DNA of 63,159 bases, taken from NCBI GenBank assembly GCA_041660105.1, contig JBAZWZ010000005.1, forward strand, positions 1 through 63,159, written 5' to 3'. Positions 1-50,287 of the stretch are shown here, in pieces; the stretch's first letter is position 1, and each line of letters starts with the position of its first letter. The stretch comes from Minisyncoccota bacterium. Lineage in GTDB: Bacteria; Patescibacteriota; Minisyncoccia; Phycocordibacterales; UBA1550. The position numbers and the translations under genes were made by a program. The notes under the pieces were generated by a model, which was not told the DNA's origin, searched no databases, and saw only the letters and a list, made by a program, of their open reading frames with translations.

Positions 1-238
1 AAACAAATAATGATTGTGATTTTCAAATTCCCAATAAGAATCGGCGTATTAGTACTCCTCTGCTGAAACGATTACTCGTCTTACACATAGAGCCTATCAA
101 CGTGATCATCTCTCACGGGCCTCAAACGAATTCTGATCTTGGGGTTGGCTTCCTTCTTAGATGCTTTCAGAAGTTATCCATTCCCGACATAGCTACGCTG
201 CGGTGCCCTTGGCAGGACAGCAGCCACACCAGAGGTCA

Positions 239-269
<31 letters not shown>

Positions 270-321
270 ATCCCCTCAAAATTCAACGCCTGCAGAAGAT
301 AGGAGACCAACCTGTCTCACG

Positions 322-754
322 CATTACTGTTTTACATCTCGCTCTGGTCTCCAAACCGCGAGAACCTCTTTTTCAAGAGGGATCGGACTATAGCATCGCC
401 TTGTTTTTAGCAAGGGTGCTGACGTTTAGTCTCTACGGGCACAGTATACTCTACTGTTTCCCTCGGAATTATCATACGATTTTACTCGCTTAGATTTTCC
501 CGAAATTAGTCAACTTGTCTACATACATCACTGTACATAGCCGCCGTGATTATGATGTCATTATTGATGAGTTTAGTCTCATCGCCTCGGGTTCAAACTA
601 AGAGAAGTCAATTACAAAGAAGATATGAACCCGTACTGGACTTGTCCATACGGAACCATATTAGCTCCTCGGCTCGGAAATATGAAAGATTACTTTCTTA
701 TTTCTCTCGCCCTACGTCGCTAATAATCTCACTATCTTTGTAATTCACTCCTCT
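322..754 (-). ncRNA. group I intron in 23S rRNA at the site equivalent to E. coli U2593/C2594
   Basis: Removing 322-754 joins GGGTTCAAACCGT|CGTGAGACAGG and restores the universal AACGUCGUGAGACAG-type block at the same length. The 5' exon ends in U and the intron ends in G (322). Minus-strand core elements are R-like GAGACTAAAC (424-433), P8 hairpin CCTTG/CAAGG (399-415) and S-like CTATAGTCC (385-393), giving P7 GACTA/TAGTC. No ORF lies inside. Confidence 0.75.
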
Positions 755-1413
755 ACGGTTTGAACCCAGCTCACGTATCTTTTTAATTGGCGAACAGCCA
801 AACCCTTGGAAGCTTCTCCACCTCCAGGATAAGATGAGCCGACATCGAGGTGCCGAACTCTGCCGTCGATATGAACTCTTGGGCAGAACTAGCCTGTTAT
901 CCCCGTGGTAGCTTTTATCCGTTAATCTTCGACCGCATCTAAAGCGTGTCGTCGGTTCACTATGCTCTGCTTTCGCACCTGCTCGACATGTCCGTCTTGC
1001 AGTTAAGCCCTCTTTTGCCATTACGCTATCGGCACGGTTTCCATTCGCGCCTAGAGGACCTTAATAGACTCCTCCGTTACCTTTTAGGAGGAGAGCGCCC
1101 CACTCAAACTACCCGCCAAATACTGTCTCCGTGCGTTTTTTCCGTACAGATTAGAATATGCCCCAAGTAAGGGTGGTATTTCACTGTTGACTCCAGACAA
1201 ACCGAAACCTGTCCTTCAAAGTCTCCCACCTATGCTACGCATACACAGAACATATTCAATATTAAGCTATAGTAAAGCTCACGGGGTCTTTTCGTCTATC
1301 TGCAGGTAACCGGCATCTTCACCGGTATTGTATTTTCACCGAGCTGCTTCTCGAGACAGTTCCCCACTCATTACGCCATTCGTGCACGTCTGAACTTACC
1401 AGACAAGGAATTA

Positions 1414-1452
<39 letters not shown>

Positions 1453-1620
1453 CAGGGCTTATACAAGCCAGCAATACAACCGAAGTCATATCACCACCCG
1501 TATTTAACCTTCTGGCATTGGTCAGGCGTCACCCCATATACATCCTCTTACGAGTTCGCATGGAGCTGTGTTTTTGGTAAACAGTTGGCAGGGAATCTTT
1601 CGCTGCGGCCTCCACCACTT

Positions 1621-2107
1621 TATTTTCAAAGTAGTTTCAGAGCCAGAAAAATTAGTCAACATTTTATTTGATGAGTTTGTAATTATAGGCTTCAGAGAGA
1701 CCACTATTCTTTAAAAATAGTGGATCCCCTGAGGGGTGCGGTAAGTAAACAGGTGCATGGCCTTACCGATACCTATTTCGGTTTTTTTGGCTTTCATACA
1801 TAGGCCCTGTTGCTTTTTCCGCAAACCCCATCAGAGGCTTTAGAGACTTTGTCTCTCTGAAGCCCACAATCACTCACCTTCTCAAATACTTTTTTTGTGT
1901 TTGATATCAGCTCTGATATCAAACACGGTCTCGATACACTCAATTCTTCGGACTCCATCACTATTGCATAAGCATTGATTAAATTGCTTTAGTTGCGAGG
2001 CGGGAAGAATTTTTTACGACCAAGATGTACAAGTGTACATTGCGTGGAGGAAAAAATTCTTCTCAACGATGCAAATGAAGTAATTTTATCGATGCGCTTT
2101 AAACGCA
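1621..2107 (-). other. ~487-nt insertion at the tip of 23S helix 63 (expansion segment, IVS or atypical intron)
   Basis: A 13-bp helix (1608-1620, GCCTCCACCACTT, with 2108-2120, AAGTGGTGGAGGC) sits where E. coli H63 (~1707-1751) is a short hairpin. The enclosed 487 nt has long-range helices (GGCTTCAGAGAGAC 1699-1712 with GTCTCTCTGAAGCC 1850-1863) and several perfect hairpins. I found no S-type group I element and no ORF. Confidence 0.6.
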
Positions 2108-2757
2108 AAGTGGTGGAGGCAAGCCTTATCCCGAAGTTACGGCTGCTTTTTTGCCGAGTTCCTTGAGAAGCAATCACTCGTTCGCCTTAGTCTACTCGAC
2201 TCGAGCACCTGTGTCGGTTTTAGGTACGGTTTTTTATTTGTTATGCTTAGAAGCTTTTCTCGGAAAGTTGCTTTGCTGTATCTGCTCAGGCGAACCTGAG
2301 CATTTCTGCTTCACTTGCGCTCGGTATTAAAACCAGACTCCCGGATTTACCTAAGAATCGCACTGATGACACAAACGCAAATCCAATAATGCGCACGGCA
2401 TACTAACCTTCGTCACTCCATCGCACAAATAAAAAGTTAAGGAATATTAACCTTATGTCCATCGGCTTCAGCTTTCGCTATCACCTTAGGCCCGACTAAC
2501 CCTTCGCTGATCAACATCGCAAAGGAAACCTTGCTCTTACGGCGTGCGGGGATCTCACCCGCATTGTGGTTACTTGTGCCAACATTCTCACTTCGTGCCG
2601 CTCCAGAGTTGCTCACACTTCTCCTTCAGCGCAGACACGAACGCTCTCCTACCGCTCCCCCATCTCTAAAGACGAGAGAACCCTCAGTTTCGGTACTACG
2701 CTTAGTCCCGATTATCTTCGGTGCAGAGTCTCTTAGTGAGTGAGCTGTTACGCTTTC

Positions 2758-2789
<32 letters not shown>

Positions 2790-3362
2790 TCACTGTCTGA
2801 GAAACTCCACCTCCTTAAGTACACTTAGCGTAGATTTTGGGACCTTAACTTGAGATCAGGGCTGTTTCCCTTTTGACCGACGGAGCTTCGCCCCCGTAGT
2901 CTTACTGCCGAGTATTTAATCTCTGGTATTCGGAGTTTGATAGGGTTAACGAGATTGCTCCCTGTTTAACCCTTCCAGTGCTCTACCCCCAGAGGGTACG
3001 CTCGACGCTATGCCAAAACATATTTCGGAGAGAACCAGCTATTACCAGATTCGATTAGCTTTTCACTCCTTACCACAAGTCATCCGATGGTGTCGCACGG
3101 CCAACCGGTTCGGGCCTCCATCTGTATTTCTACAAACTTCACCCTGCTCATGGTAAGCTCATCTGGCTTCGGGTCTCATGCATACAACAAACGCGCTATT
3201 CACACTCGGTTTCCCTAAGGCTCCACCCGACAAGGGCTTAGCCGCGCTGTATACATGAACTCGTTGGCTCATTCTTCAATAGGCACGCAGTCACTCTAAA
3301 TAAATTTAAAGCTCCTACTCCTTGTAAGCATATGGTTTCAGTTCTATTTCACTCCCCTCACC

Positions 3363-3407
<45 letters not shown>

Positions 3408-3927
3408 TTCTAAGAGTATTTAGCCTTACCAGTTAGTTCTGGTAGATTCCCCCGAGCTATTCGTGTCTCGAAGTACTCAAGAACAGAGACAAAGAAGATG
3501 TAATGTTTTCGTTTACCGGGCTATCACCGTCTAGGGCCTTGCTTTCCAGCAAGTTCAACTAACATTACATTTTGTAACTCCTCTCGTATAAATACGACGT
3601 CTCTGCCTTACAACCCCTACTATAAATAGTAGGTTTGGGCTATTTCCGTTTCGCTCGCCGCTATTCAGGAAATGTTCCGCCATTCGGCGGCTTTTTTTAT
3701 TTTCCTCCAGGTACTGAGATGTTTCACTTCCCTGGGTATACTCCAACATTTAAATGTTGGTCATGACCTATAACAGTCATGGGGTTTCCCCATTCAGAGA
3801 TCTCCGGATCAAAGGTTGCTAGGCACCTCCCCGAAGCTTATCGCAGCCATGCTACGTCTTTCATCGCCTCTTAGAACCAAGGCATCCACCATATGCTCTT
3901 AAATTTCTTATTAGGAAATTTAAAAAC

Positions 3928-3945
3928 CACAATCATTATTTGTTT
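3928..3945 (-). promoter_or_regulatory. 5' half of the pre-23S processing stem (pairs with window positions 1-18)
   Basis: CACAATCATTATTTGTTT (3928-3945) is the perfect reverse complement of positions 1-18. It brackets the mature 23S ends like an RNase III processing stem. Weaker pairing continues inward (19-30 / 3915-3927). Confidence 0.7.
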
Positions 3946-3997
3946 CCCGAGCACCAATACTGGTGCTCGGTAGCCTCGCTTGCTTAGAGCGAGACTT

Positions 3998-5243: not shown

Positions 5244-5930
5244 CTACTTATTCGAGATGTCCTCGCGGAGCTTCTCGATATAGTTTGCTGCTGCTTCCTT
5301 GCCACCAAGTCCGAATGCGAGACCTCCTGCGAGAGCAAGCATTGCTACGAGCCCTGTGAAGAGTGTCTGCATCATACCCGCAGCGATACCGAGCTGGTTC
5401 ATTGCTGCAAGAATTGCAACAATCCAGATAGACCAACGTGCAATACCACCAACGAATCCTGCTGACTTTGACTCAAGAGCGCGAGCGCCACCGGCCATCA
5501 CCTTCTGTGTGAAGTCTGCAAGAACTGCTGCGGTAACCAAGATCAATGTTGCAACGATAACCTGTGGAATGTATCCAAGTACAACGTTGAGCAAGAACTG
5601 ATTAACTGCCTGGAGGTTGAGAATATCAAGAGCAGTCACGAGGAATACTACAATGATAAACCACTTAACCAAACCGCCGAGGAATGCGCCAGTGTTAAGT
5701 CTGAAACCTGCTTTCTCAAGAAGACCGCGTGCTCCTGCGCTTTCGAGGACTGAATCAATCTTTGTTGCCTTTACAAGCTTAGCAATAACCTCAGCAAGAA
5801 CTGAGCCAACAACCCACCCTGCAATGAAAATTACAATTGCAACGAGAAGCTTTGGAAGGAACGCGATCAACTGTCCGCCAATCCCCTGAAATGATCCCCC
5901 CAACTGTGTTCCCCAATCTGAAATAAGCAT
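5244..5930 (-). CDS. membrane protein with repeated conserved-TM-helix motifs (CmpX / MscS-N-terminal-like)
   Basis: 228-aa ORF with repeated 'LP.LL.A..I...G' style TM segments alternating with short amphipathic linkers. Confidence 0.55.
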   Translation of the reverse strand: MLISDWGTQLGGSFQGIGGQLIAFLPKLLVAIVIFIAGWVVGSVLAEVIAKLVKATKIDSVLESAGARGLLEKAGFRLNTGAFLGGLVKWFIIVVFLVTALDILNLQAVNQFLLNVVLGYIPQVIVATLILVTAAVLADFTQKVMAGGARALESKSAGFVGGIARWSIWIVAILAAMNQLGIAAGMMQTLFTGLVAMLALAGGLAFGLGGKEAAANYIEKLREDISNK

Positions 5931-6700: not shown

Positions 6701-6771
6701 GCGGGGAATTATACCACTTTATAAAAATATAGACCAATACCCTACTGCAGATGCCTCGGAGTATCGGTCTA

Positions 6772-6838
6772 TATTAACTCCTCGACTCAACAATGAGAAA
6801 GATTACTTTCTCATTGTGCTCGCCCTACGTCGTTAATA
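6772..6838 (-). repeat. 67-nt structured hairpin element, copy 3
   Basis: TATTAAC-TCCTCGACTC..hairpin ACAATGAGAAAG/CTTTCTCATTGT..CTCGCCCTACGTC-GTTAATA. Homologous to 659-725 and 9721-9785, with compensatory changes in both stems. Confidence 0.8.
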
Positions 6839-6870
6839 AAAGAAAAAGCCCCGCGGTACTCCGCGGGGCT
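6838..6870 (-). terminator. intrinsic terminator (pair member with 7754-7786)
   Basis: AAAGAAAAAGCCCCGCGG-TACT-CCGCGGGGCT, directly after the plsC stop. Confidence 0.75.
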
Positions 6871-9706: not shown

Positions 9707-9720
9707 ATAACTGTATACAA

Positions 9721-9785
9721 TATTAGCTCCTCGGCTCGGAAGTGAGAAATAATTTTCTCACTTCTCTCGTCCTACGTCGCTAATA
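9721..9785 (-). repeat. 67-nt structured hairpin element, copy 2 (in the rplJ 5' leader)
   Basis: TATTAGC-TCCTCGGCTCGG-hairpin GAAGTGAGAAA/TTTCTCACTTC-CTCTCGTCCTACGTC-GCTAATA. It ends 15 nt upstream of the rplJ ATG. Confidence 0.8.
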
Positions 9786-9918
9786 ATTAATATTTTGAGC
9801 GGCCAGAACGCGGAGCGTTCTGGCCGAAAGCCATCCCATAACGGGAATAAGTCGACCTCCGCAGGGCCTATGTCGCTTTTCTCTGCGACCGCCTACTTCT
9901 TCGGGCTTCGGGGTTATA

Positions 9919-10802: not shown

Positions 10803-13800
10803 CTAGATGACTTCTTTTCTAACCGTAATGAAGTACGGGGAAAGATAATCGTTGAACTCATTGTTTGCAGAATCTTTTATGTGGGCTTTTATTCGATAAG
10901 TTCCTACGGGGACAGTGGTTGTTGCCCCAGAAAGAACCCAGTTCCAGGATTTCGAACATGAGACTGTCCCGTCGACACACCCTGTCCCCGAATAAAAGAT
11001 TTTGTCTTTTGATGGATCTGATATATCCTGAATCGCAACGGAAACCCAATCAACGCTTTCACTTGCGGTAAGCTCGAGCTCCATATCAGCTGGTGTCGTC
11101 GTCGCAAAATCTGCAACAACATCCCCCGCGACACCATTAAACGTATAACTCAAAATCGAAGGAGGAGTGGTGTCGAGCACGACAGGAGGTGGGGTCGTAT
11201 CTGGCGCGACAGTTACCGTAACAGTGTACACTTGCGTTGAGCCATTTTCTGCAGTAACCGTATACGAAACAGGATTTGTGAAGTCTTGAGAAGATAGTAA
11301 CGATGGGCTCGACGTTGCAAGTGGTGACAGAGTAATAGCTGGCGTAAGTGTACGCACATCAATACCAAAAGGAACCGTCAGACTAATAGTGTGTACAGTC
11401 TCATCGATGACTCCAGGAATTGTTGATGTAGAAACCTGCAAACTAAAAGCTGTGATTGATTTTTCAGTACTAAGAACTACGGGTGGAGTTGTGTCTTGAG
11501 AAATAATTACCGTAACAGTGTACACTTGTGTCATGCCATTTTCTGCAGTTACCGTGTATGTAACTGGATTCGTAAAATCATGCACAGCCCCCGAAGCTGG
11601 GCTTGAAGTTGCAAGAGCAGGCACTGATATAGCTGGTGAGAGAGAGTGAACATCAGTACCAAAAGGAACCGTCAGACTAATAGTGTGCGTAGTCTCGTCT
11701 ATAACTCCTGAGATTGTTGACGTAGAAACCTGCAAACTAAATGCAGTAATTGATTTTTCCGAGCTCAAGATTACAGGAGGTGGAGGAAGGACTATCGCAG
11801 GCTTATTACTGATATTATCAATCACCACTTTCCCATTCCCCGCACACGTTTTTGACCATCCATCAAGACTACCGCACGCACCAGGGGCAACAGCGACTCC
11901 TGTATACGACGAAGTTTGGTAGTACACAGCGACACGTCCGCCTGAAGGAATGATAAACCCACAGTTCCACCCGCACCAAACCATACTTCCTCCTGCTGAT
12001 ACGAATGATCCAGCCCCTTCCAATTCACTAGCTTCAACATAAACACTACCGCCAACTTTTCCAGCTGGACCATTCGCAGAAACACCGCCGTTATTAATAA
12101 ATTTACCGGAGGATTTAATGTACACAGAAGCCCTTTCTCCGGAAGCAAAGAAATTGTCGGGGTCACTCACCGTAGGTGTGGTCCAAGCAGAAACAGAGGA
12201 ACCGACACCAATATCAAGATTGTTAACAACAATACGAAGTTGTTGCCCCGCTCCTGCGCCTAATTTACCGCCATCTTTCAAAATAAGCGAATCAACAATC
12301 AATGGGTCTGCACACATCAGTGTCAAAGTGCTTCCCTTCCCTATTGTCATAGTGGGAACATTTAATGTCACTCCTGACCCAATAGTTACAAAGGAACTAC
12401 TAGTTGCAGATAGATTGTTTGCGTTGACCGTAGAGTTGTCACTCATAGTAAATCGCGCACCACCAGCCAAAGAAATTGTGTCGGCTGTAAGCGTTGCACT
12501 TTTTTCAATTTCAACACTAGCTCCGTTTGTAAGATAAATATTGTGATAATTTAATGGCTCATCATTTTTTTGAAACCTGAACGAGTTTTTAATATACAAA
12601 TCTTTATGAGTATCATCAAAAAATGCTGCAGTTCCCGCTCCCACCGCTGAACCAGAAAACGATGAACTTGCATAGTGAACTGCTATTCTACCACCACCTC
12701 CAGCAAATCTGTATGGCCAATTTGCATAACTACCATTTGCACTTAACATGCCTGTCCCGGCAAAATTGTTTGCGACCACGTAAATACTCCCCCCGCTTGC
12801 ACGAGTACCACTGCCATTCGCAGAAATAATTCCGTCATTTACAAACGAATCTGTTACAACTATTTGTACTGCTCCTCCACCTCGTGGCCCCATTCCACTT
12901 CCTAAATCAACAGGTCTTGTGGCAGATCCATAAATTGGTGGATTCACCCCTCCTCCCCCACCTCCGTAACTTGCAGCTGGGTCTGATCCTGTACCAGCTT
13001 GAGGGGGACTCCCTGGCCCCATGTTGTACCCTTGACCGTTTGCAGAGATTGAGGAGCCAGAAGAGACTGTGAGATTTGCAACCTCCAGTGAGAGTGTTTT
13101 TTCTATCGAACCAGTAATAGCAGATCCTCCTAACACAGACAGCGTGTTCGTATTTATTTTTTCTCCACCAGAAAGCACTAAGGTTGAGGCCCCATCCAGA
13201 ATAATCTCGGGGATATTTAATACATCGCCATTCGAAAAAGAGAGATATGAGCCACCAGAAAGAACAAGTTTATCTGCGGAAAGTGATACACCACTATCTA
13301 CACTGACTGATGCGCCGTTTGTAAGATAAATATTGTGATAATTTAATGGCTCATCATTTTTTTGAAACCTGAACGAGTTTTTAATATACAAATCTTTATG
13401 AGTATCATCAAAAAATGCTGCAGTTCCCGCTCCCACCGCTGAACCAGAAAACGATGAACTTGCATAGTGAACTGCTATTCTACCACCACCTCCAGCAAAT
13501 CTGTATGGCCAATTTGCATAACTACCATTTGCACTTAACATGCCTGTCCCGGCAAAATTGTTTGCGACCACGTAAATACTCCCCCCGCTTGCACGAGTAC
13601 CACTGCCATTCGCAGAAATAATTCCGTCATTTACAAACGAATCTGTTACAACTATTTGTACTGCTCCTCCACCTCGTGGCCCCATTCCACTTCCTAAATC
13701 AACAGGTCTTGTGGCAGATCCATAAATTGGTGGATTCACCCCTCCTCCCCCACCTCCGTAACTTGCAGCTGGGTCTGATCCTGTACCAGCTTGAGGGGGA

Positions 13801-16524: not shown

Positions 16525-16534
16525 TGTGGATAAC
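16525..16534 (-). promoter_or_regulatory. GTTATCCACA box
   Basis: Perfect 10-mer between the REP-like hairpin (16539-16562) and the promoter of CDS 15853-16458. Confidence 0.5.
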
Positions 16535-16538
16535 TTTT

Positions 16539-16562
16539 AAACAAAGGACCGCCCTTTGTTTT
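16539..16562. repeat. REP-like hairpin (variant AAAGGACCGCCCTTT) just 3' of the RAYT gene
   Basis: AAACAAAGGACCGCCCTTTGTTT. The same 15-mer recurs as an inverted pair at 21982-22030. Confidence 0.7.
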
Positions 16563-17233
16563 TATTCTTCCTCGCCAAAAGAGAGCCAGTCGTTAACGAA
16601 ATCATCAAAATCTTTTGTAGTGTCAAAATATTGTGGACCGGCTTCACGGTTAGTAATCTTCGACTGCAGGCGCGGTGACCCTTGATAATCAACATAACTT
16701 GAGTATTCATAGCTTTTCAAATATTCTTGAGCCGCTACGCGATCTTGAATACCGCTTTCTTTCCATTCGGGCTCGATGAGTTTAATTGGGTTTAAATGAA
16801 TATATGCAAATAAATATTTCAAATACTCATCCGTATCAGCGTGTTTTGCTTTGAATCTGCTCTCAAACAGAGCTCCTGTACGCTTATTCTTCTTGTTGAA
16901 ATACATTGAGTAGCCAGTTAGGAGCTTTGAGACAAACTTCGCAACGCCGCCCTCTGATTTCTCGCGGACAACAAGATGAAAATGGTTTGGCATCAGACAA
17001 TACGCAACAATATCCACAAGTGTTTCACCACGCTCTATTTCAAAAAGCTCAATAAAGGACCGTCCTTGTTTGAAATGTAGACCAATATTTACTGGATTTG
17101 AGCTATTGCAGGCATATAGTAGCGCCTCAAATCGTTTGTAATCATGTTGTGCAAGGAAAATGAGGCGCTTGTCGGTTCCTCTATTATATATATGGTAGTA
17201 CTCCCCTGTCGAGAAATTAAACTTTCGTAACAT
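16562..17233 (-). CDS. HUH Y1 tyrosine transposase, IS200-like / REP-associated (RAYT-type)
   Basis: YHIYNRG N-terminal block, HUH motif (MPNHFHLVV) and catalytic-Tyr block (AYIHLNP). The ORF track's extra N-terminal 23 aa are encoded by a REP hairpin, so I start at Met-24 (17233), 6 nt after TATACT. Confidence 0.8.
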   Translation of the reverse strand: MLRKFNFSTGEYYHIYNRGTDKRLIFLAQHDYKRFEALLYACNSSNPVNIGLHFKQGRSFIELFEIERGETLVDIVAYCLMPNHFHLVVREKSEGGVAKFVSKLLTGYSMYFNKKNKRTGALFESRFKAKHADTDEYLKYLFAYIHLNPIKLIEPEWKESGIQDRVAAQEYLKSYEYSSYVDYQGSPRLQSKITNREAGPQYFDTTKDFDDFVNDWLSFGEEE

Positions 17234-17254
17234 CCCAATAGTATACAACTTTTC

Positions 17255-17551
17255 AAATAAAGGACGGTCCTTTATTTGGAGAAACTGTGGATAACTCATC
17301 ATTTATATAGTGTTTTTTAGGAAATATTGAAATAAAGGACCGTCCTTTATTCGGGGAAGCAGAGCCCCTTCTCAGGGAACATGGACTATGGGCTTAGAGT
17401 GCACTCGTTTCGCGCTTACTGTCAGCTTGATCCCTTAATTTCTTGATTTCTGGTCATCATTTTGAAATAAAGGACGGTCCTTTATTTTGGGGTTTTGTTG
17501 AGAAATATGGGCGAAATGGGGAAAAGTGCAGAAAAAGGACCGTCCTTTATT
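17255..17551. repeat. cluster of four REP-like palindromes ATAAAGGAC(G/C)GTCCTTTAT (BIME-like)
   Basis: Copies at 17255-17277, 17330-17351, 17465-17487 and 17532-17551. The central base alternates G,C,G,C, meaning alternating orientation. All lie within 320 nt upstream of the RAYT gene. Confidence 0.85.
17286..17295 (-). promoter_or_regulatory. GTTATCCACA box
   Basis: Perfect 10-mer, 9 nt from the first REP copy, upstream of the RAYT -10 element. Confidence 0.5.
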
Positions 17552-27078: not shown

Positions 27079-27663
27079 ATGAGGATTATGGCAATTATAG
27101 ATTACAATGAAATTAAACCAGGAAAGTGTATTGTTTTAAAAGGTGAGCCTTATTTGGTTATGTCTTCGCACGTAGCTCAGAAGCAAAAGCGTCGCCCAAC
27201 CAACCAAACCAAGCTCAAGCACCTCGTTACGGGTCGTGTTGTGGAAGAAACCTTCCAGCAGTCTGACCGAGGAGTGGAGGCAGATATTGAGTCAAAGGAG
27301 CTTAAGTACCTCTACTCGGGTAAAGGTGAATCGTGGTTCTGTGATGTAAAAGACGCATCTGATAGATTTGCACTCAAGACAGAAATTCTCGATGGAAAGG
27401 AAGGCCTACTCAAGGCAAACACGATTGTAACCGCAATGCTTTTTGATGACAAAGTTATCGGTGTGAAGCTCCCTATCAAAGTTGAGCTCCTCGTAAAAGA
27501 AGCTCCGCCAGCAGTACGTGGCAACACGGTTTCAGGTGGATCAAACACCGTGACTCTCGAAACAGGTGCGACGATCCAGGTGCCAATGTTTATCCACGAA
27601 GGCGACCTCATCAGGGTGAATACAGAGACGGGTACGTATGCGGAACGCGTAGATAAAAAGTAA
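27079..27663 (+). CDS. efp: elongation factor P
   Basis: EF-P fold pattern (..GKCIVLKGEPYLV.., ..GVKLP.KVEL.V.EAPP..RGNT.., ..TGA.IQVP.FI..GD.I.V.T..G.Y..R). The start may be the ATG at 27088. The tip loop is non-canonical (see findings). Confidence 0.9.
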   Translation: MRIMAIIDYNEIKPGKCIVLKGEPYLVMSSHVAQKQKRRPTNQTKLKHLVTGRVVEETFQQSDRGVEADIESKELKYLYSGKGESWFCDVKDASDRFALKTEILDGKEGLLKANTIVTAMLFDDKVIGVKLPIKVELLVKEAPPAVRGNTVSGGSNTVTLETGATIQVPMFIHEGDLIRVNTETGTYAERVDKK

Positions 27664-27720
27664 GAGGAGAACAGGGGGAACTAAAATGCACAAAGGGAAC
27701 GAAGGTGCACACAAAGAAAC

Positions 27721-27753
27721 AAAACGCCCGGTCGCTTCGCGACCGGGCGTTTT
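27721..27753. terminator. bidirectional terminator shared by efp (+) and rpsR (-)
   Basis: AAAACGCCCGGTCGC-ttc-GCGACCGGGCGTTTT, with A- and T-runs on both sides. Confidence 0.85.
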
Positions 27754-27806
27754 GTCTATGTTTTCCTCGTTCTCTCTGGTTCTTCCTGTCCCAAGTGTTC
27801 CCTTTT

Positions 27807-28016
27807 TTACTTTGATACGAATGGAATGAACGCCATGAAACGGGCGCGCTTGATAGCAGACGCGAGCTGGCGCTGGTACTTTGCTGAAACTCCTGTACGC
27901 TTCCCCGCAATCATACGTGCGTGGGGTGTAAGGAACTTCTTCAAAATATCAACATCCTTATAGTCGATAAGTTTTACGTTGTTCGTCGTAAAATAACATT
28001 GTGTGTTCTTTTTCAT
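27807..28016 (-). CDS. rpsR: 30S ribosomal protein S18
   Basis: 69 aa: IDYKDVDILKKFLTPHARMIAGKRTGVSAKYQRQLASAIKRARFMA. Confidence 0.96.
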   Translation of the reverse strand: MKKNTQCYFTTNNVKLIDYKDVDILKKFLTPHARMIAGKRTGVSAKYQRQLASAIKRARFMAFIPFVSK

Positions 28017-28063
28017 GGTAGTTTAAAGTTTTTTAATTTGATTTTTTGAACTTAGGCAGTTGA

Positions 28064-28150
28064 GTGCAGTACGAGGCGCAACCGAGCATTGTGACCAAGC
28101 TGTACATGGAGTACTGTGCGGAAACAAGCGGAGTTTGCAACGAAGTAATG
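28064..28150 (-). repeat. 87-nt structured element, copy 1 (ssb-rpsR spacer)
   Basis: 83/87 identical to 28695-28781. The termini TGCAGTAC...GTAATGCA are self-complementary. The flanks extend the stem (GCAGTTGA / TCAACTGC). Confidence 0.85.
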
Positions 28151-28171
28151 CATCAACTGCGTATGTTCAAA

Positions 28172-28636
28172 CTAGAATGGGATGTCGTCGGGATTGATAT
28201 CCTCCTCCGGATACTCAATAGTTTCTAGAGCTTCGTGAGCGGGAGCTGCTGCTGATTTTGATACTGGAGCAGCTGCTGCGGGAGTATAGCCTCCAGCCGT
28301 GGGCGCTCCTGCGCGGGGACCAAACTGCATACTGTCTGCAATGATTTCTGTACGGTATTTCTTGACACCGCTTGGATCATCCCAACTGCGAGTCTGCATA
28401 CGTCCTTCAATGTATACACCTGAACCTTTTTTCAAGTACTGAGCTGCGAGTTCTGCGAGCTTTGCGAACATCACAATATTGTGATAATCCACACTCTCCT
28501 GCTTTGCCCCCATCTTATCTTTCCAGACGCGGTTGGTTGCAAGACTGAAACTGGTAACTTGCTGTCCCGAAGGGAGCGCTTTCATTTCTGGGTCGCGCGT
28601 CAAGTTCCCGTAAACCATTGCTTTGTTGATGTACAT
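28172..28636 (-). CDS. ssb: single-stranded DNA-binding protein
   Basis: OB-fold N-terminus (NKAMVYGNLTRDPE..LATNRVWKDK..), a Gly/Pro/Ala-rich linker, and an acidic tip DDIPF. Confidence 0.96.
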   Translation of the reverse strand: MYINKAMVYGNLTRDPEMKALPSGQQVTSFSLATNRVWKDKMGAKQESVDYHNIVMFAKLAELAAQYLKKGSGVYIEGRMQTRSWDDPSGVKKYRTEIIADSMQFGPRAGAPTAGGYTPAAAAPVSKSAAAPAHEALETIEYPEEDINPDDIPF

Positions 28637-28694
28637 AATAATATAATTATTTTCTATCTTTTATTTTGTATCCAGTAAGGACTTATATTTGGGA

Positions 28695-28781
28695 TGCAGT
28701 ACGAGGCGCAACCGAGCATTGTGACCAAGCTGTACATGAAGTACCGCGCGGAAACAAGCGGAGGTTGCAACGAAGTAATGC
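28695..28781 (-). repeat. 87-nt structured element, copy 2 (rpsF-ssb spacer)
   Basis: Same core as 28064-28150. Here the flanks TTTGG / CCAAA extend the closing stem with a different sequence. Confidence 0.85.
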
Positions 28782-28800
28782 GCCAAAATTAAGTTCTTAC

Positions 28801-29274
28801 CTATGCTACCAATTCTTCAATAGCCTTGTCCAGCACTTCCTCCGTTGGTGCTACAACTGGGGCTTCTTCATTCACAATTTCAGCAACCTCTTCCTCCTTT
28901 ACTTTTGCTGCCGTAAACTTCTTTGCAATGAAAGTGTTCTCCTTAATCGTCTTTACGACGAGGTAGCGAAGAACGTTGTCGTCCTTCTTGAGTGCTTCTT
29001 CGAGTGTTGCAATCCCTTCTGGGTTTGCTTCAAACTTAATCCATCCAAAGTAAGCATTGTCGAAGCGCTTGTTCTTGTGCTCGACAGTCTTAACAATGGT
29101 GTAGGCGAGGTCGATGAATACAGGAAGTTCCTCGGCAATGATGTCCCTGGAAATCTGCTCAATCATACCACGCACGGCTCCCGACGCTCCTGGGATTTGC
29201 TCCACAGCAAGCGTTGGAACGAGATGGTAGCCTAGCTCATATACGCGAGGCTCCGTGTGTTCATTATGATCCAT
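28801..29274 (-). CDS. rpsF: 30S ribosomal protein S6 (extended C-terminus)
   Basis: S6-like core (YELGYHLVP... FGWIKFEANPEGIATLEEALKKDDNVLRYLVVKT), first gene of rpsF-ssb-rpsR. Confidence 0.9.
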   Translation of the reverse strand: MDHNEHTEPRVYELGYHLVPTLAVEQIPGASGAVRGMIEQISRDIIAEELPVFIDLAYTIVKTVEHKNKRFDNAYFGWIKFEANPEGIATLEEALKKDDNVLRYLVVKTIKENTFIAKKFTAAKVKEEEVAEIVNEEAPVVAPTEEVLDKAIEELVA

Positions 29275-29286
29275 ATTTTTAATTGC

Positions 29287-29443
29287 GAACCTAGTTTTAA
29301 AATAGTTACTACTGCGTTTGGCAAAATTCTACTACAAACCTTCGTAATGCTCGTCATTGTGCCTCGGCACAACTCCTCTCATTTCTCGGTTTTCGCTACG
29401 AATTTTGCAAAACTCGCTACGCAATTATTTTAAAACCAGGTTC
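29287..29443 (-). promoter_or_regulatory. long nested hairpin in the rpsF 5' leader (candidate autoregulatory leader or MITE)
   Basis: Outer arms GAACCTAGTTTTAAAATA (29287-29304) / TATTTTAAAACCAGGTTC (29426-29443) match 17/18. Inner arms are GCAAAATTC (29321-29329) / GAATTTTGC (29400-29408). The apical hairpin is TTGTGCC-gag-GGCACAA. Confidence 0.5.
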
Positions 29444-29515
29444 TGTGGGGTTTCCCCCGTTAACCTGATAACTTGCGTATACTACCAAAGTATCGTCCAA
29501 AAGTCCACAAATAAA

Positions 29516-29547
29516 ACCCGTTCAAGTCTATTTCAACTTGAACGGGT
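29516..29547 (-). terminator. terminator after CDS 29580-30170
   Basis: ACCCGTTCAAGT-(8 nt)-ACTTGAACGGGT, followed on the minus sense by TTTTAT. Confidence 0.8.
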
Positions 29548-29579
29548 CTGAGCTAGTATTACTCTACAATGGCACTAAT

Positions 29580-30170
29580 CTAAGCCGCCTTGCGCGACAG
29601 CTCCGCCTTCAAATGGAAACCATCTGAGCATCTGCCGTTGCACTCCTTATAGTGTGGCTCACAAACCATGAATGCTTCGACTGTCCCGTGGTTGTTGTTC
29701 CAAGCAAGATGTGTGCGTGGCTGGTCGCAACCTTCATGCACACAAATCCCCGGGGTCACAGCGAGGTCATCTGGATAATAAATCACATTTATACCAAGAC
29801 GATTGTTTTTAAAACCAAATGCTTGATTAATCAAGGAATCAACTCTGTTCTCAATGGTCAGGTGCCACTCCGGCATCTCACTTGGCTCCAGATGGGCAAG
29901 TTCGATACCTTCGTCCAAAAGCAGGAAGTCATCTTCGGATTTTGACCACCCCTCCCTTACCCACTCTCGAATGACATGTGACCCGAAGTTTTTTGTGAGG
30001 TACCATTTCGGAACTGAAATCTTCGCAAAGTCTTTACCGTCTTTCTGAAAAATTTCAGTAATTGTTCCCGCAACATCAAACTGATGCATCCAGGTGTCAC
30101 TTGCTGATAATGCTTTAACAACTGACCCAACCTCAAATTTTTTCATAATTCTCTCCTGTAAACACACCAA
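29580..30170 (-). CDS. hypothetical Cys/His-rich protein
   Basis: 196-aa ORF with a TTG start in the track. The more likely start is the internal ATG (MKKFEVG, ~30146). The C-terminal half has CxxxxC...H...C...C..C spacing suggestive of metal binding. Confidence 0.55.
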   Translation of the reverse strand: MVCLQERIMKKFEVGSVVKALSASDTWMHQFDVAGTITEIFQKDGKDFAKISVPKWYLTKNFGSHVIREWVREGWSKSEDDFLLLDEGIELAHLEPSEMPEWHLTIENRVDSLINQAFGFKNNRLGINVIYYPDDLAVTPGICVHEGCDQPRTHLAWNNNHGTVEAFMVCEPHYKECNGRCSDGFHLKAELSRKAA

Positions 30171-49566: not shown

Positions 49567-49741
49567 AATTTTTGAGCTGGTATTAATATTGGAATTCGTT
49601 GAGTCTACCCTAGTTTGGGAGATTTTTCAAGTGGTTAATTTTTAAGGAGTAAAACGACTATAAAAATGACCACCCACCTAAGTTTTTCTTCGAAAAATTT
49701 GGGCGGGTAAGAAAATCATAATCGCTTCGCTCTTCGCTTTT

Positions 49742-50287
49742 CTATATCTTATGAATCTGGAGGAAATCGAGTTCTACGGGTGTCTCACGACCAAACATTG
49801 AGACGAGTACCTTCGCGCGACCACGCTCGCCGTCAACCTCAGAAACCTTACCTTCGAGATCCTTGAATGGCCCGTCGACAATAGTCACCATGTCGCCAAC
49901 GACGAGGTCAATATTGTGCTTTGCGGTCTTGTCAGACATACGACTGAAGAGCAAGTCTGCTTCTGCTTTCGCAAGAGGTACTGGAGTTACTCCTGCCCCC
50001 ACGAAACCAGTAACACGGGGAGTATTGCGCACCACATACCATGAGTCATCCGTAACAATCATATCCACGAGAATGTACCCAGGGAAAATTTTCTCTTCAA
50101 CCTCAACACGCTTTGTGCCCTTTACTTTGATCTTCTTCTCGAGAGGAATAAGTACGTTGAAAATCTTGTCCTCCATACCGAGAGACTCAATACGCTGTTT
50201 CAAATTGCGGAGCACGGCGTTTTCGTAACCCACATAGGTGTGGATTGCGTACCAATTGCGCTCGCCAGTTGTTTCTTGTTTTGCCAT
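49742..50287 (-). CDS. nusG: transcription termination/antitermination factor NusG
   Basis: NGN (WYAIHTYVGYENAV) and KOW (GDMVTIVDGPFKDLEGKVSEVD) domains. Confidence 0.96.
   Translation of the reverse strand: MAKQETTGERNWYAIHTYVGYENAVLRNLKQRIESLGMEDKIFNVLIPLEKKIKVKGTKRVEVEEKIFPGYILVDMIVTDDSWYVVRNTPRVTGFVGAGVTPVPLAKAEADLLFSRMSDKTAKHNIDLVVGDMVTIVDGPFKDLEGKVSEVDGERGRAKVLVSMFGRETPVELDFLQIHKI

Follow-up and report, generated by a model that had tools for sequence, protein, structure and literature searches.

Two hairpin modules occupy the spacers of the rpsF-ssb-rpsR operon

The 63,159-nt stretch of contig JBAZWZ010000005.1 analyzed here (the window), from a Minisyncoccota bacterium, carries on its minus strand an operon encoding ribosomal protein S6 (rpsF), single-stranded DNA-binding protein (ssb), and ribosomal protein S18 (rpsR) (Table 1). 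By its S6 homologues, the organism belongs among Yonathbacteria-like Parcubacteria. Both of the operon's spacers are long, with 164 nt between rpsF and ssb (sp1; 28637-28800) and 155 nt between ssb and rpsR (sp2; 28017-28171). An initial annotation of this DNA had described two near-identical structured elements, one inflating each spacer, and our results bear out this description. Hairpin-free relatives have 4-39 nt between rpsF and ssb and 2-19 nt between ssb and rpsR. A repeat finder paired 28065-28156 with 28695-28786 in the same orientation (92 nt, 93% identity). The 87-nt core of this repeat is identical at 83 of 87 positions (4 mismatches); the position given earlier for the copy in sp1 was right, and that for the copy in sp2 (28064-28150) started one nucleotide off (Table 1). 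Within the window, a 31-mer taken from the core is found at exactly two places, compared to 0 expected in shuffles.

In the mRNA sense, 126 of the 164 nt of sp1 and 127 of the 155 nt of sp2 are predicted to fold into one hairpin (-44.6 and -42.8 kcal/mol, respectively), and the fold z-scores of the two copies are -2.8 and -5.2. Each hairpin starts at the first base after a stop codon. The outer stem in sp1, GTAAGAACTTAATTTTGG...CCCAAATATAAGTCCTTAC, begins directly after rpsF, and the hairpin is followed by a 38-nt A/T-rich tail and the ssb ATG. The outer stem in sp2, TTTGAAC...GTTCAAA, begins directly after ssb, with a 28-nt A-rich tail separating the hairpin from the rpsR ATG. The self-complementary termini and the locus-specific stem extensions noted previously (GCAGTTGA/TCAACTGC and TTTGG/CCAAA) are present in these predicted folds. 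Terminator-like hairpins mark the operon edges (29549-29514 and 27757-27717), and no terminator-like site was found in sp1 or sp2, where A-rich tails follow both hairpins. Because such hairpins bound the operon and are absent from its spacers, co-transcription of the three genes across both spacers is plausible.

Table 1. Coordinates of the rpsF-ssb-rpsR operon and of related hairpins in the window.
Feature	Position	Strand	Remarks
rpsF, ribosomal protein S6, 157 aa	28801-29274	-	PF01250
ssb, single-stranded DNA-binding protein, 154 aa	28172-28636	-	PF00436 in orthologues
rpsR, ribosomal protein S18, 69 aa	27807-28016	-	PF01084
Core copy 1, 87 nt, in sp2	28065-28151	-	Moved by 1 nt from the initial annotation
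Core copy 2, 87 nt, in sp1	28695-28781	-	Sequence of sp2 type
Full hairpin module in sp2	28045-28171	-	Predicted fold; R1 match 28050-28158(-), 104.2 bits
Full hairpin module in sp1	28675-28800	-	Predicted fold; R1 match 28680-28788(-), 110.9 bits
Third family member, inside 23S rRNA gene, rRNA sense	1974-2084	-	R1 65.1 bits, E about 1e-17
Long hairpin in rpsF 5' leader, 146 nt, diverged module relative, antisense to operon	29295-29440	+	R1 20 bits
Bidirectional terminator-like hairpin closing the operon, between rpsR and convergent efp	27717-27757	.	

The module recurs at operon junctions and in rRNA operons

The search for further copies that the initial annotation had called for was run with a degenerate pattern taken from the conserved 3' arm, TACANCTTGGTCNNARTNCTCNNNNNCGC. 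Metagenome contigs yielded 98 stretches with 101 matches (84 unique sequences), and viral contigs yielded 0 matches to the same pattern. The wider family consensus is present in all pattern matches but one (L037, apparently inside an open reading frame [ORF]). Only ~18 of the 101 matches lie near rpsF, ssb, or rpsR; ~80 lie in other contexts, and the module is found at more than 20 other kinds of junction. Clustering of flanking ORFs placed it between S7 and EF-G in seven contigs. Other ribosomal and transcription junctions include SSB-S18, S6-SSB, NusG-L11, L6-L18, and positions downstream of L10 and upstream of rpoB, and further copies lie at KH-domain protein-TrmD, FtsW/RodA-FolD, SecY-Adk, AtpE-AtpF, DnaG-RpoD, YchF-helicase, and other junctions. 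Because most copies sit at other junctions or in the rRNA operon, the module is, by its distribution, an element of operon junctions in general rather than a dedicated regulator of S6-SSB-S18.

Placement at these junctions is regular. With approximate boundaries, and where the upstream gene is co-oriented, the median distance between its stop codon and the first base of the hairpin is -1 nt; the median gap from the hairpin end to the following start is 42 nt. Where both neighbors are co-directional, 28 copies are in the sense orientation and 5 are antisense. Flanking proteins carry the source names Candidatus Nomurabacteria, Paceibacterota, and Parcubacteria group, and the family ranges over Parcubacteria/Paceibacteria genomes (Yonathbacteria, Nomurabacteria, and others). 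The covariance model R1 detected 3-4 copies in the 63-kb window; in ~476 kb of loci, themselves selected because they hold a copy, it added 7 matches to the copies already defined by the pattern. It misses rearranged variants (L004 sp2, L010 sp1), and these copy counts are lower bounds. Small GC-rich hairpins are nested in the 3' arm or apical loop of some copies (L047/L055, where CCCGCCCGAAACGTACCGTTTCGGTACGGGCGGG stands between GCGCC and TCGAA; L109; L057/L060/L118).

The third copy detected in the window is embedded in the 23S rRNA gene (31-3912, minus strand). In the Rfam large-subunit (LSU) alignment, 145 nt are inserted into the apical loop of a hairpin at model positions ~1750-1780, which comes after the GCCGUAACUUCGGGAUAAGGC hairpin and which we read as helix 63, a variable helix. 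The 23S contigs of other organisms skip window positions 1611-2117, indicating a full insertion of ~507 nt, with the module at its 5' side. The remaining ~363 nt are very strongly structured, with a fold z-score of -13 for the whole insertion, and have no match in the other loci. The insertion also includes a perfect 13-bp hairpin, GTTTGATATCAGAGCTGATATCAAAC. In four contigs from another organism (L101, L094, L078, and L040), the module lies in the sense orientation between the 23S 3' end and a tRNA plus 5S rRNA. The tRNA of L101 (4345-4419), between the module and 5S rRNA, was called by ARAGORN as tRNA-Ile with the unusual anticodon AAT. The rRNA genes of the candidate phyla radiation (CPR) contain many uncharacterized short ORF-less insertions that may resemble intervening sequences (IVS) (PMC11270868); that survey describes neither this element nor its copies in mRNA spacers.

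Helices covary and loops are conserved

We aligned 71 copies (alignment A6) and derived a 30-pair structure by RNAalifold and refinement by hand. Standard pairs occupy 91.4% of cells, compared to 72.6% after shuffling and 32-42% when the structure is slid along the alignment. Pairs changed on both sides number 19 (15.5 in shuffles). At the level of cells, 377 are changed on both sides, compared to 120 +/- 8 after shuffling, and none of 500 shuffles reaches 377. Covariation is free in the inner helix (columns 27-32 with 87-91) and in the closing helices; at columns 14/103, for example, the pairs are CG in 28 copies, AU in 25, GC in 12, and UA in 4. The loops and the mismatches between helices are near-invariant. 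Reading 5' to 3', the conserved interior consists of CUUyGUUGC, a variable helix, CUCCGUUUGCUCC-CGCGCAGUA, a loop, UACAGCUUGGUCGCAAUACUC, a second variable helix, and GCGCCUCG. Conservation is thus greatest in the interior, while the outer stems pair yet vary most. Covarying helices with near-invariant loops are the mark of selection acting on a structured nucleic acid.

The inner-helix covariation also bears on two alternative pairings proposed in the initial annotation. GCAACC/GGTTGC corresponds to the covarying columns 27-32 with 87-91, whereas GGCGCA/TGCGCC can form in copy 2 only and uses flank sequence; covariation in A6 gives no sign of a switch between them. With respect to strand, the sense-strand R1 scores of the window copies are 111 and 104 bits, compared to 12 bits for the antisense strand, and two wobble pairs are near-invariant on the sense strand (U.G in 70 of 71 copies, G.U in 66 of 71).

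Searching the whole window against Rfam 15 at gathering score returned only LSU rRNA and a group I intron, and a search of region 27600-29700 at E <= 10 returned nothing overlapping either copy. In the literature on structured RNAs, miniature inverted-repeat transposable elements (MITEs), and rRNA insertions of CPR/Patescibacteria, we found no description of the module, only the general CPR rRNA insertion survey. This ~130-nt hairpin module is apparently undescribed and is a good candidate for a new RNA family, for which alignment A6 and model R1 could serve as the basis of an Rfam entry. Several other identities were considered and rejected. Coding of a micro-ORF is contradicted by 1-5-nt differences in loop length, which shift the frame, and by the compensatory nature of the stem substitutions. 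A likeness of the antisense strand to the sarcin-ricin loop (AGUACGAG, seen by eye) was dismissed, as most members have GAA and not GUA at that position. Integron attC sites and IS200/IS605-derived elements were rejected on architecture alone, the interior being conserved and the ends not.

Spacers in relatives point to old paralogues and gene conversion

We compared the operon spacers of 28 genomes found through S6 alignment and of 3 loci found through exact-protein look-ups. The window's element is designated type A; types B, C, and D are unrelated spacer hairpins. Many relatives have spacers of 2-5 nt (L009, L018, L025, sp1 of L008, and others), and lengths of 2-34 nt are frequent. Among operon relatives, type A is present in sp1 of the window, L014, L024, and L027, with further sp1 orthologues in L053, L058, and L059. 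In sp2 it is present in the window, L006, L007, L010-L014, and L032, with compensatory changes in the orthologous copies. Rearranged variants occur in L004, sp1 of L010, and L028; in sp2 of L004 and sp1 of L010, the 5' arm has been swapped for a common small hairpin, CTGAATCAGCAGATTC. The flanks of the sp1 copies are orthologous across genomes, as are those of the sp2 copies, and the 19-nt spacer of L019 (TTTGAACAT|TAAACTTATT) is a deletion relic of the sp2 hairpin. Given these orthologous flanks and this relic, sequence comparison indicates that sp1 and sp2 hold old paralogues, both of which have orthologues at their own position and have been lost repeatedly. We also considered whether ssb is a cassette between direct repeats, or whether the pair arose by local duplication; both were rejected, since relatives commonly have the operon with 2-4-nt spacers and since orthologues exist for either copy separately.

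The window sp1 core is 94% identical to the window sp2 core and 88% identical to the sp2 core of L012, compared to only 70-76% for orthologous sp1 cores, which are 85-92% identical to one another. The flanks behave in the opposite way: those of the window sp1 copy are 73-81% identical to the flanks of sp1 orthologues and 30% identical to the window sp2 flanks. For comparison, the sp1 and sp2 cores of L014 are 64% identical. These identities indicate that a recent gene conversion in the window lineage copied the sp2 core over that of sp1 and left the outer stems in place. Gene conversion explains why alike cores carry unrelated, locus-specific stem extensions. The initial annotation had read the differing flanks as a sign either of selection for a closed hairpin or of an insertion mechanism that targets hairpins; the closing stem is under selection, and hairpin-targeting insertion is not needed.

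Other hairpins and repeats

Sequencing runs of DNA contain co-occurring relatives without the sp1 hairpin or without the hairpin in the rpsF leader, and assemblies break at the repeat. The leader hairpin folds strongly (z-scores -5.0 and -4.7) and lies at the same place in L021 (96% identity; 2338-2481) and in L023 and L006 (~83%; 2336-2481 and 3837-3978); most relatives are without it. Window and L021 are 96% identical in this hairpin and only 73% identical in their S6 proteins. In L004 and L007 this place is taken by a hairpin of 16 nt, CCTGGGTAAAACCAGG, with a stem that corresponds to the base of the long one. A promoter-like motif, TTGACTT-N17-TGGTAG(G/T)AT, is common to all relatives (window 29441-29510; upstream of rpsF in L004-L034) and in all of them precedes a conserved leader of small size, GTTAYYAGGTTAACGGGGGRAACCCC, situated ~20-45 nt upstream of the rpsF ATG.

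The unrelated spacer hairpins recur as well. Type D is a ~150-nt palindromic filler of 11-17% GC in the rpsF-ssb spacer of several genomes (L006 4484-4635; L011 2984-3134; L016 2993-3137; L034 1432-1540), with copies elsewhere in other loci (L010 ~840-900; L058 ~5440-5560). Type C fills the ssb-rpsR spacer of L016 and L021, and a further copy is present in L080. Type B (AAGCGAAGAGCGAAGCGAT...CTTACCCGCC...GGTGGGTGG) lies in the window at 49664-49740(-), in the sense orientation directly after the NusG stop codon, in the spacer between NusG (49742-50287) and L11 (49141-49566). It is unrelated to type A and also fills the ssb-rpsR spacer in L008, L015, L024, and L027, with two copies in L129. The NusG-L11 junction that holds type B in the window holds a type A module in L083. 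In L004, the public gene call downstream of ssb (11123-11614) is a 163-aa ORF with no Pfam match, and tblastn places the start of the true 69-aa rpsR at 11106; gene calling was apparently led astray by the long, structured spacer.

Three other sets of repeats were seen in the window. A 69-nt family, ATATTAGCTCCTCGGCTCGG...CGCCCTACGTCGCTAATAA, has one copy in the 23S gene region near the group I intron (364-564) and two elsewhere (658-726, 6771-6839, 9718-9786). A short palindrome, AAATAAAGGACCGTCCTTTATT, occurs six times within 1 kb (16529-17551), and the copies look like terminator-type hairpins between small genes. A perfect 300-nt direct repeat (12520-12819 and 13312-13611; 792-nt spacing), with further 78%-identical repeats nearby (11188-11780), probably marks a repetitive protein-coding region.

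Transcript data

In metatranscriptome X8, a 168-nt contig (depth 5.2, one mismatch) spans exactly that part of the 23S insertion that forms the hairpin (1959-2113). The remaining ~350 nt of the insertion have a depth of 0, and the exact-match 23S flanks have a depth of ~390. This depth pattern is compatible with a stable excised hairpin, although as evidence it is weak and proves nothing.

A possible role in RNA processing and its alternatives

The module occupies non-coding transcribed positions, mostly in the sense orientation, and is structurally constrained. We favor, with slightly less than even confidence, the interpretation that this dispersed family of hairpin modules, gene-converted in this operon, acts in cis as an RNA processing or stability element. 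The module would act as RNA within the polycistronic transcript, where its ~50-bp interrupted double-stranded RNA may be a substrate for an RNase III-type endonuclease or a dedicated partner. Cleavage, or the stable hairpin ends left over, could segment the transcript and uncouple the stability or translation of neighboring cistrons. In rRNA contexts, the module would behave like an excised intervening sequence or a spacer-processing stem. New copies would be rare and arise by duplication or conversion, and loss would be frequent. A processing role is favored because rRNA spacers and helix tips are typical locations of RNase III substrates and intervening sequences, because the module lies at junctions needing different output (AtpE/AtpF, L10/L12/RpoB, S6/SSB/S18, DnaG/RpoD), and because a canonical RNase III gene is present on L036, a contig with two module copies. 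Processing or stability, one of the roles suggested in the initial annotation, remains the best guess.

Several observations weigh against this interpretation. Close relatives manage with 2-4-nt spacers, so any function of the module must be dispensable. The rpsF-ssb-rpsR operon was not found in any RNA run searched, and the X8 contig is ambiguous, given that its 13-nt flank is unlike the window and that the 23S flanks are common to relatives without the insertion. G-U outnumbers A-C 208 to 99, but the ratio becomes 72 to 99, and not decisive, once the two invariant pairs are removed; since the wobble test is then neutral, strand assignment rests mainly on the orientation of genes and rRNA. 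Antisense copies are found at 5-6 junction types, and with orthologous sites collapsed the sense:antisense ratio is only ~17:6, a bias that could derive from the replication strand. Finally, each module has ~40 near-invariant unpaired or mismatched nucleotides, and RNase III is not known to need so many. Invariant loops on this scale point to something more specific in addition, be it a protein partner, a chemistry of the module's own, or a mobilization machinery. A specific protein or a chemistry of its own leads to an unlikely but more far-reaching proposal: the module may be a new class of autonomous RNA-processing cassette, with conserved loops that would either cleave themselves or be recognized by a nuclease dedicated to them in Parcubacteria. 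Such a cassette would be excised from rRNA (the helix 63 insertion and the 23S-5S spacer) and would cut polycistronic mRNAs at junctions, as a mobile intervening sequence with which these reduced genomes segment operon transcripts.

The main rival to a processing role, rather unlikely but serious in our view, is that the module serves no host function and is a selfish palindromic element (MITE, ERIC, or REP-like) that is mobile but non-autonomous. Its interior would be recognized by a mobilizing enzyme on folded single-stranded DNA, copies would survive only where harmless (cistron junctions, rRNA helix tips, spacers), and the orientation bias would reflect replication-strand or tolerance effects. 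Dispersal at low to moderate copy number (3-4 in 63 kb), variable presence among close relatives, the occurrence of different hairpin families at the same junction (NusG-L11), the small hairpins nested in some copies, the copy within an rRNA gene, and the subtype features common to copies of one lineage all fit such an element. Its architecture is harder to reconcile with this explanation, as the termini are least and the interior most conserved, the reverse of what is expected of MITEs defined by inverted repeats. No target-site duplication was seen by eye in the flanks of ~80 copies, whose ends are fuzzy and AT-rich, and no recurrent transposase-like neighbor emerged among the flanking ORF clusters of metagenome contigs; neither absence comes from a systematic test. 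Recent bursts are also contradicted by the age of the orthologous copies and by paralogues as low as 64% identical within one genome (L014), and the strong sense bias in co-directional contexts would not be expected. The initial annotation had regarded its proposal as endangered if relatives had the same spacers without the element and with unchanged expression, or if the element were a high-copy MITE found randomly genome-wide and not conserved in structure. Relatives indeed are without it, which gives the first concern partial weight; with regard to the second, the module is dispersed genome-wide, yet its placement is non-random and its structure is conserved.

Two regulatory explanations must be weighed against cis-acting processing. 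The conserved internal loops could form a regulon operator that binds one dedicated trans-acting protein, RNA polymerase, or the ribosome and works in the manner of the put or EAR processive antiterminators, or helps re-initiation, and thereby coordinates expression across long housekeeping and rRNA operons. The near-invariant loop nucleotides between covarying helices resemble those of protein- and ligand-binding RNAs, and both the enrichment in translation, transcription, and rRNA operons and the fixed placement relative to the stop codon are in line with this idea. We nevertheless find it quite unlikely, as the module is dispensable in close relatives, antisense copies exist, a copy inside mature-rRNA sequence is hard to explain, and no candidate partner was identified. 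An autoregulatory site for S6:S18 (or S18), specific to the rpsF operon, had also been raised in the initial annotation. Position within the S6-SSB-S18 mRNA speaks for it, and in other bacteria S6:S18 is known to autoregulate by way of an mRNA mimic, which there lies in the 5' UTR. This role is contradicted by the distribution of copies, on which S6:S18 specificity was rejected: other operons or rRNA account for more than 80% of the family, spread over more than 20 other junction kinds, an rRNA spacer, and the 23S gene, and many relatives have the same operon without the module. Moreover, no Rfam ribosomal-leader match was obtained at E <= 10, and the separate short leader hairpin GTTAYYAGGTTAACGGGGGRAACCCC, present in all relatives, is a better candidate for S6:S18 autoregulation than the spacer elements. 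An S6:S18 site in the spacers is thus highly improbable.

Parcubacteria are uncultivated organisms with very small genomes, and almost nothing is known of their post-transcriptional control of expression. A covariation-supported module at the junctions of ribosomal-protein, transcription, and ATP-synthase operons, and also within the rRNA operon, offers a concrete handle on the processing of operon mRNAs. It may also account for some of the uncharacterized short insertions in CPR rRNA genes (PMC11270868). In practical terms, short-read assemblies break at the rpsF operon because of the repeat, spacers become longer, and gene calling can go wrong, as in L004.

Comparison with known systems

ERIC/IRU elements of enterobacteria are ~127-bp imperfect palindromes limited to transcribed intergenic regions, with a proposed effect on mRNA stability. 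The module resembles them in size, low copy number in some genomes, variable presence, internal insertions, and suggested constraint at the RNA level. It differs in belonging to another phylum, in showing no relation to them in sequence (none would be expected), in having a variable closing stem and a conserved interior, in showing no TA target duplication, in its strong sense bias, and in its additional presence in an rRNA gene and rRNA spacer. Intervening sequences of 23S rRNA are excised by RNase III, and their classical sites are helices 9, 25, and 45. The window 23S copy shares with them an extended stem-loop at the tip of a 23S surface helix and a sporadic occurrence among relatives; unlike them, it lies in helix 63, is only part of a 507-nt insertion, and belongs to a module that is also found in mRNA spacers.

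Correia/NEMIS elements of Neisseria end in conserved 26-bp terminal inverted repeats, show a TA duplication, and number in the hundreds, and their RNA hairpins are RNase III substrates. REP/BIME elements of E. coli are 20-40 nt long, with a conserved GTAG head and a RAYT transposase, and they stabilize upstream mRNA and give differential expression within operons. Like both, the module is a dispersed palindromic repeat, probably co-transcribed with neighboring genes. In contrast to Correia/NEMIS, it is without conserved terminal inverted repeats, a feature that also separates its ends from those of MITEs, and no TA duplication or hundreds of copies were found. In contrast to REP/BIME, it is ~130 nt long, its apical stem is GUAU, GUAC, or GUAG with covariation, and no fixed GTAG head or RAYT was found. 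The S6:S18-binding leader of rpsF, a short 5'-UTR hairpin that mimics 16S rRNA, is likewise a structured RNA in the rpsF operon transcript; the module, however, is intercistronic, ~130 nt long, and not operon-specific. Its A-rich tails and the lack of terminator-like sites in the spacers distinguish it from intrinsic terminators. By analogy, the module may work like ERIC, 23S intervening sequences, Correia, and REP elements, yet it departs from each in the defining features that could be checked and joins two habitats, rRNA insertions and mRNA junctions, in one family.

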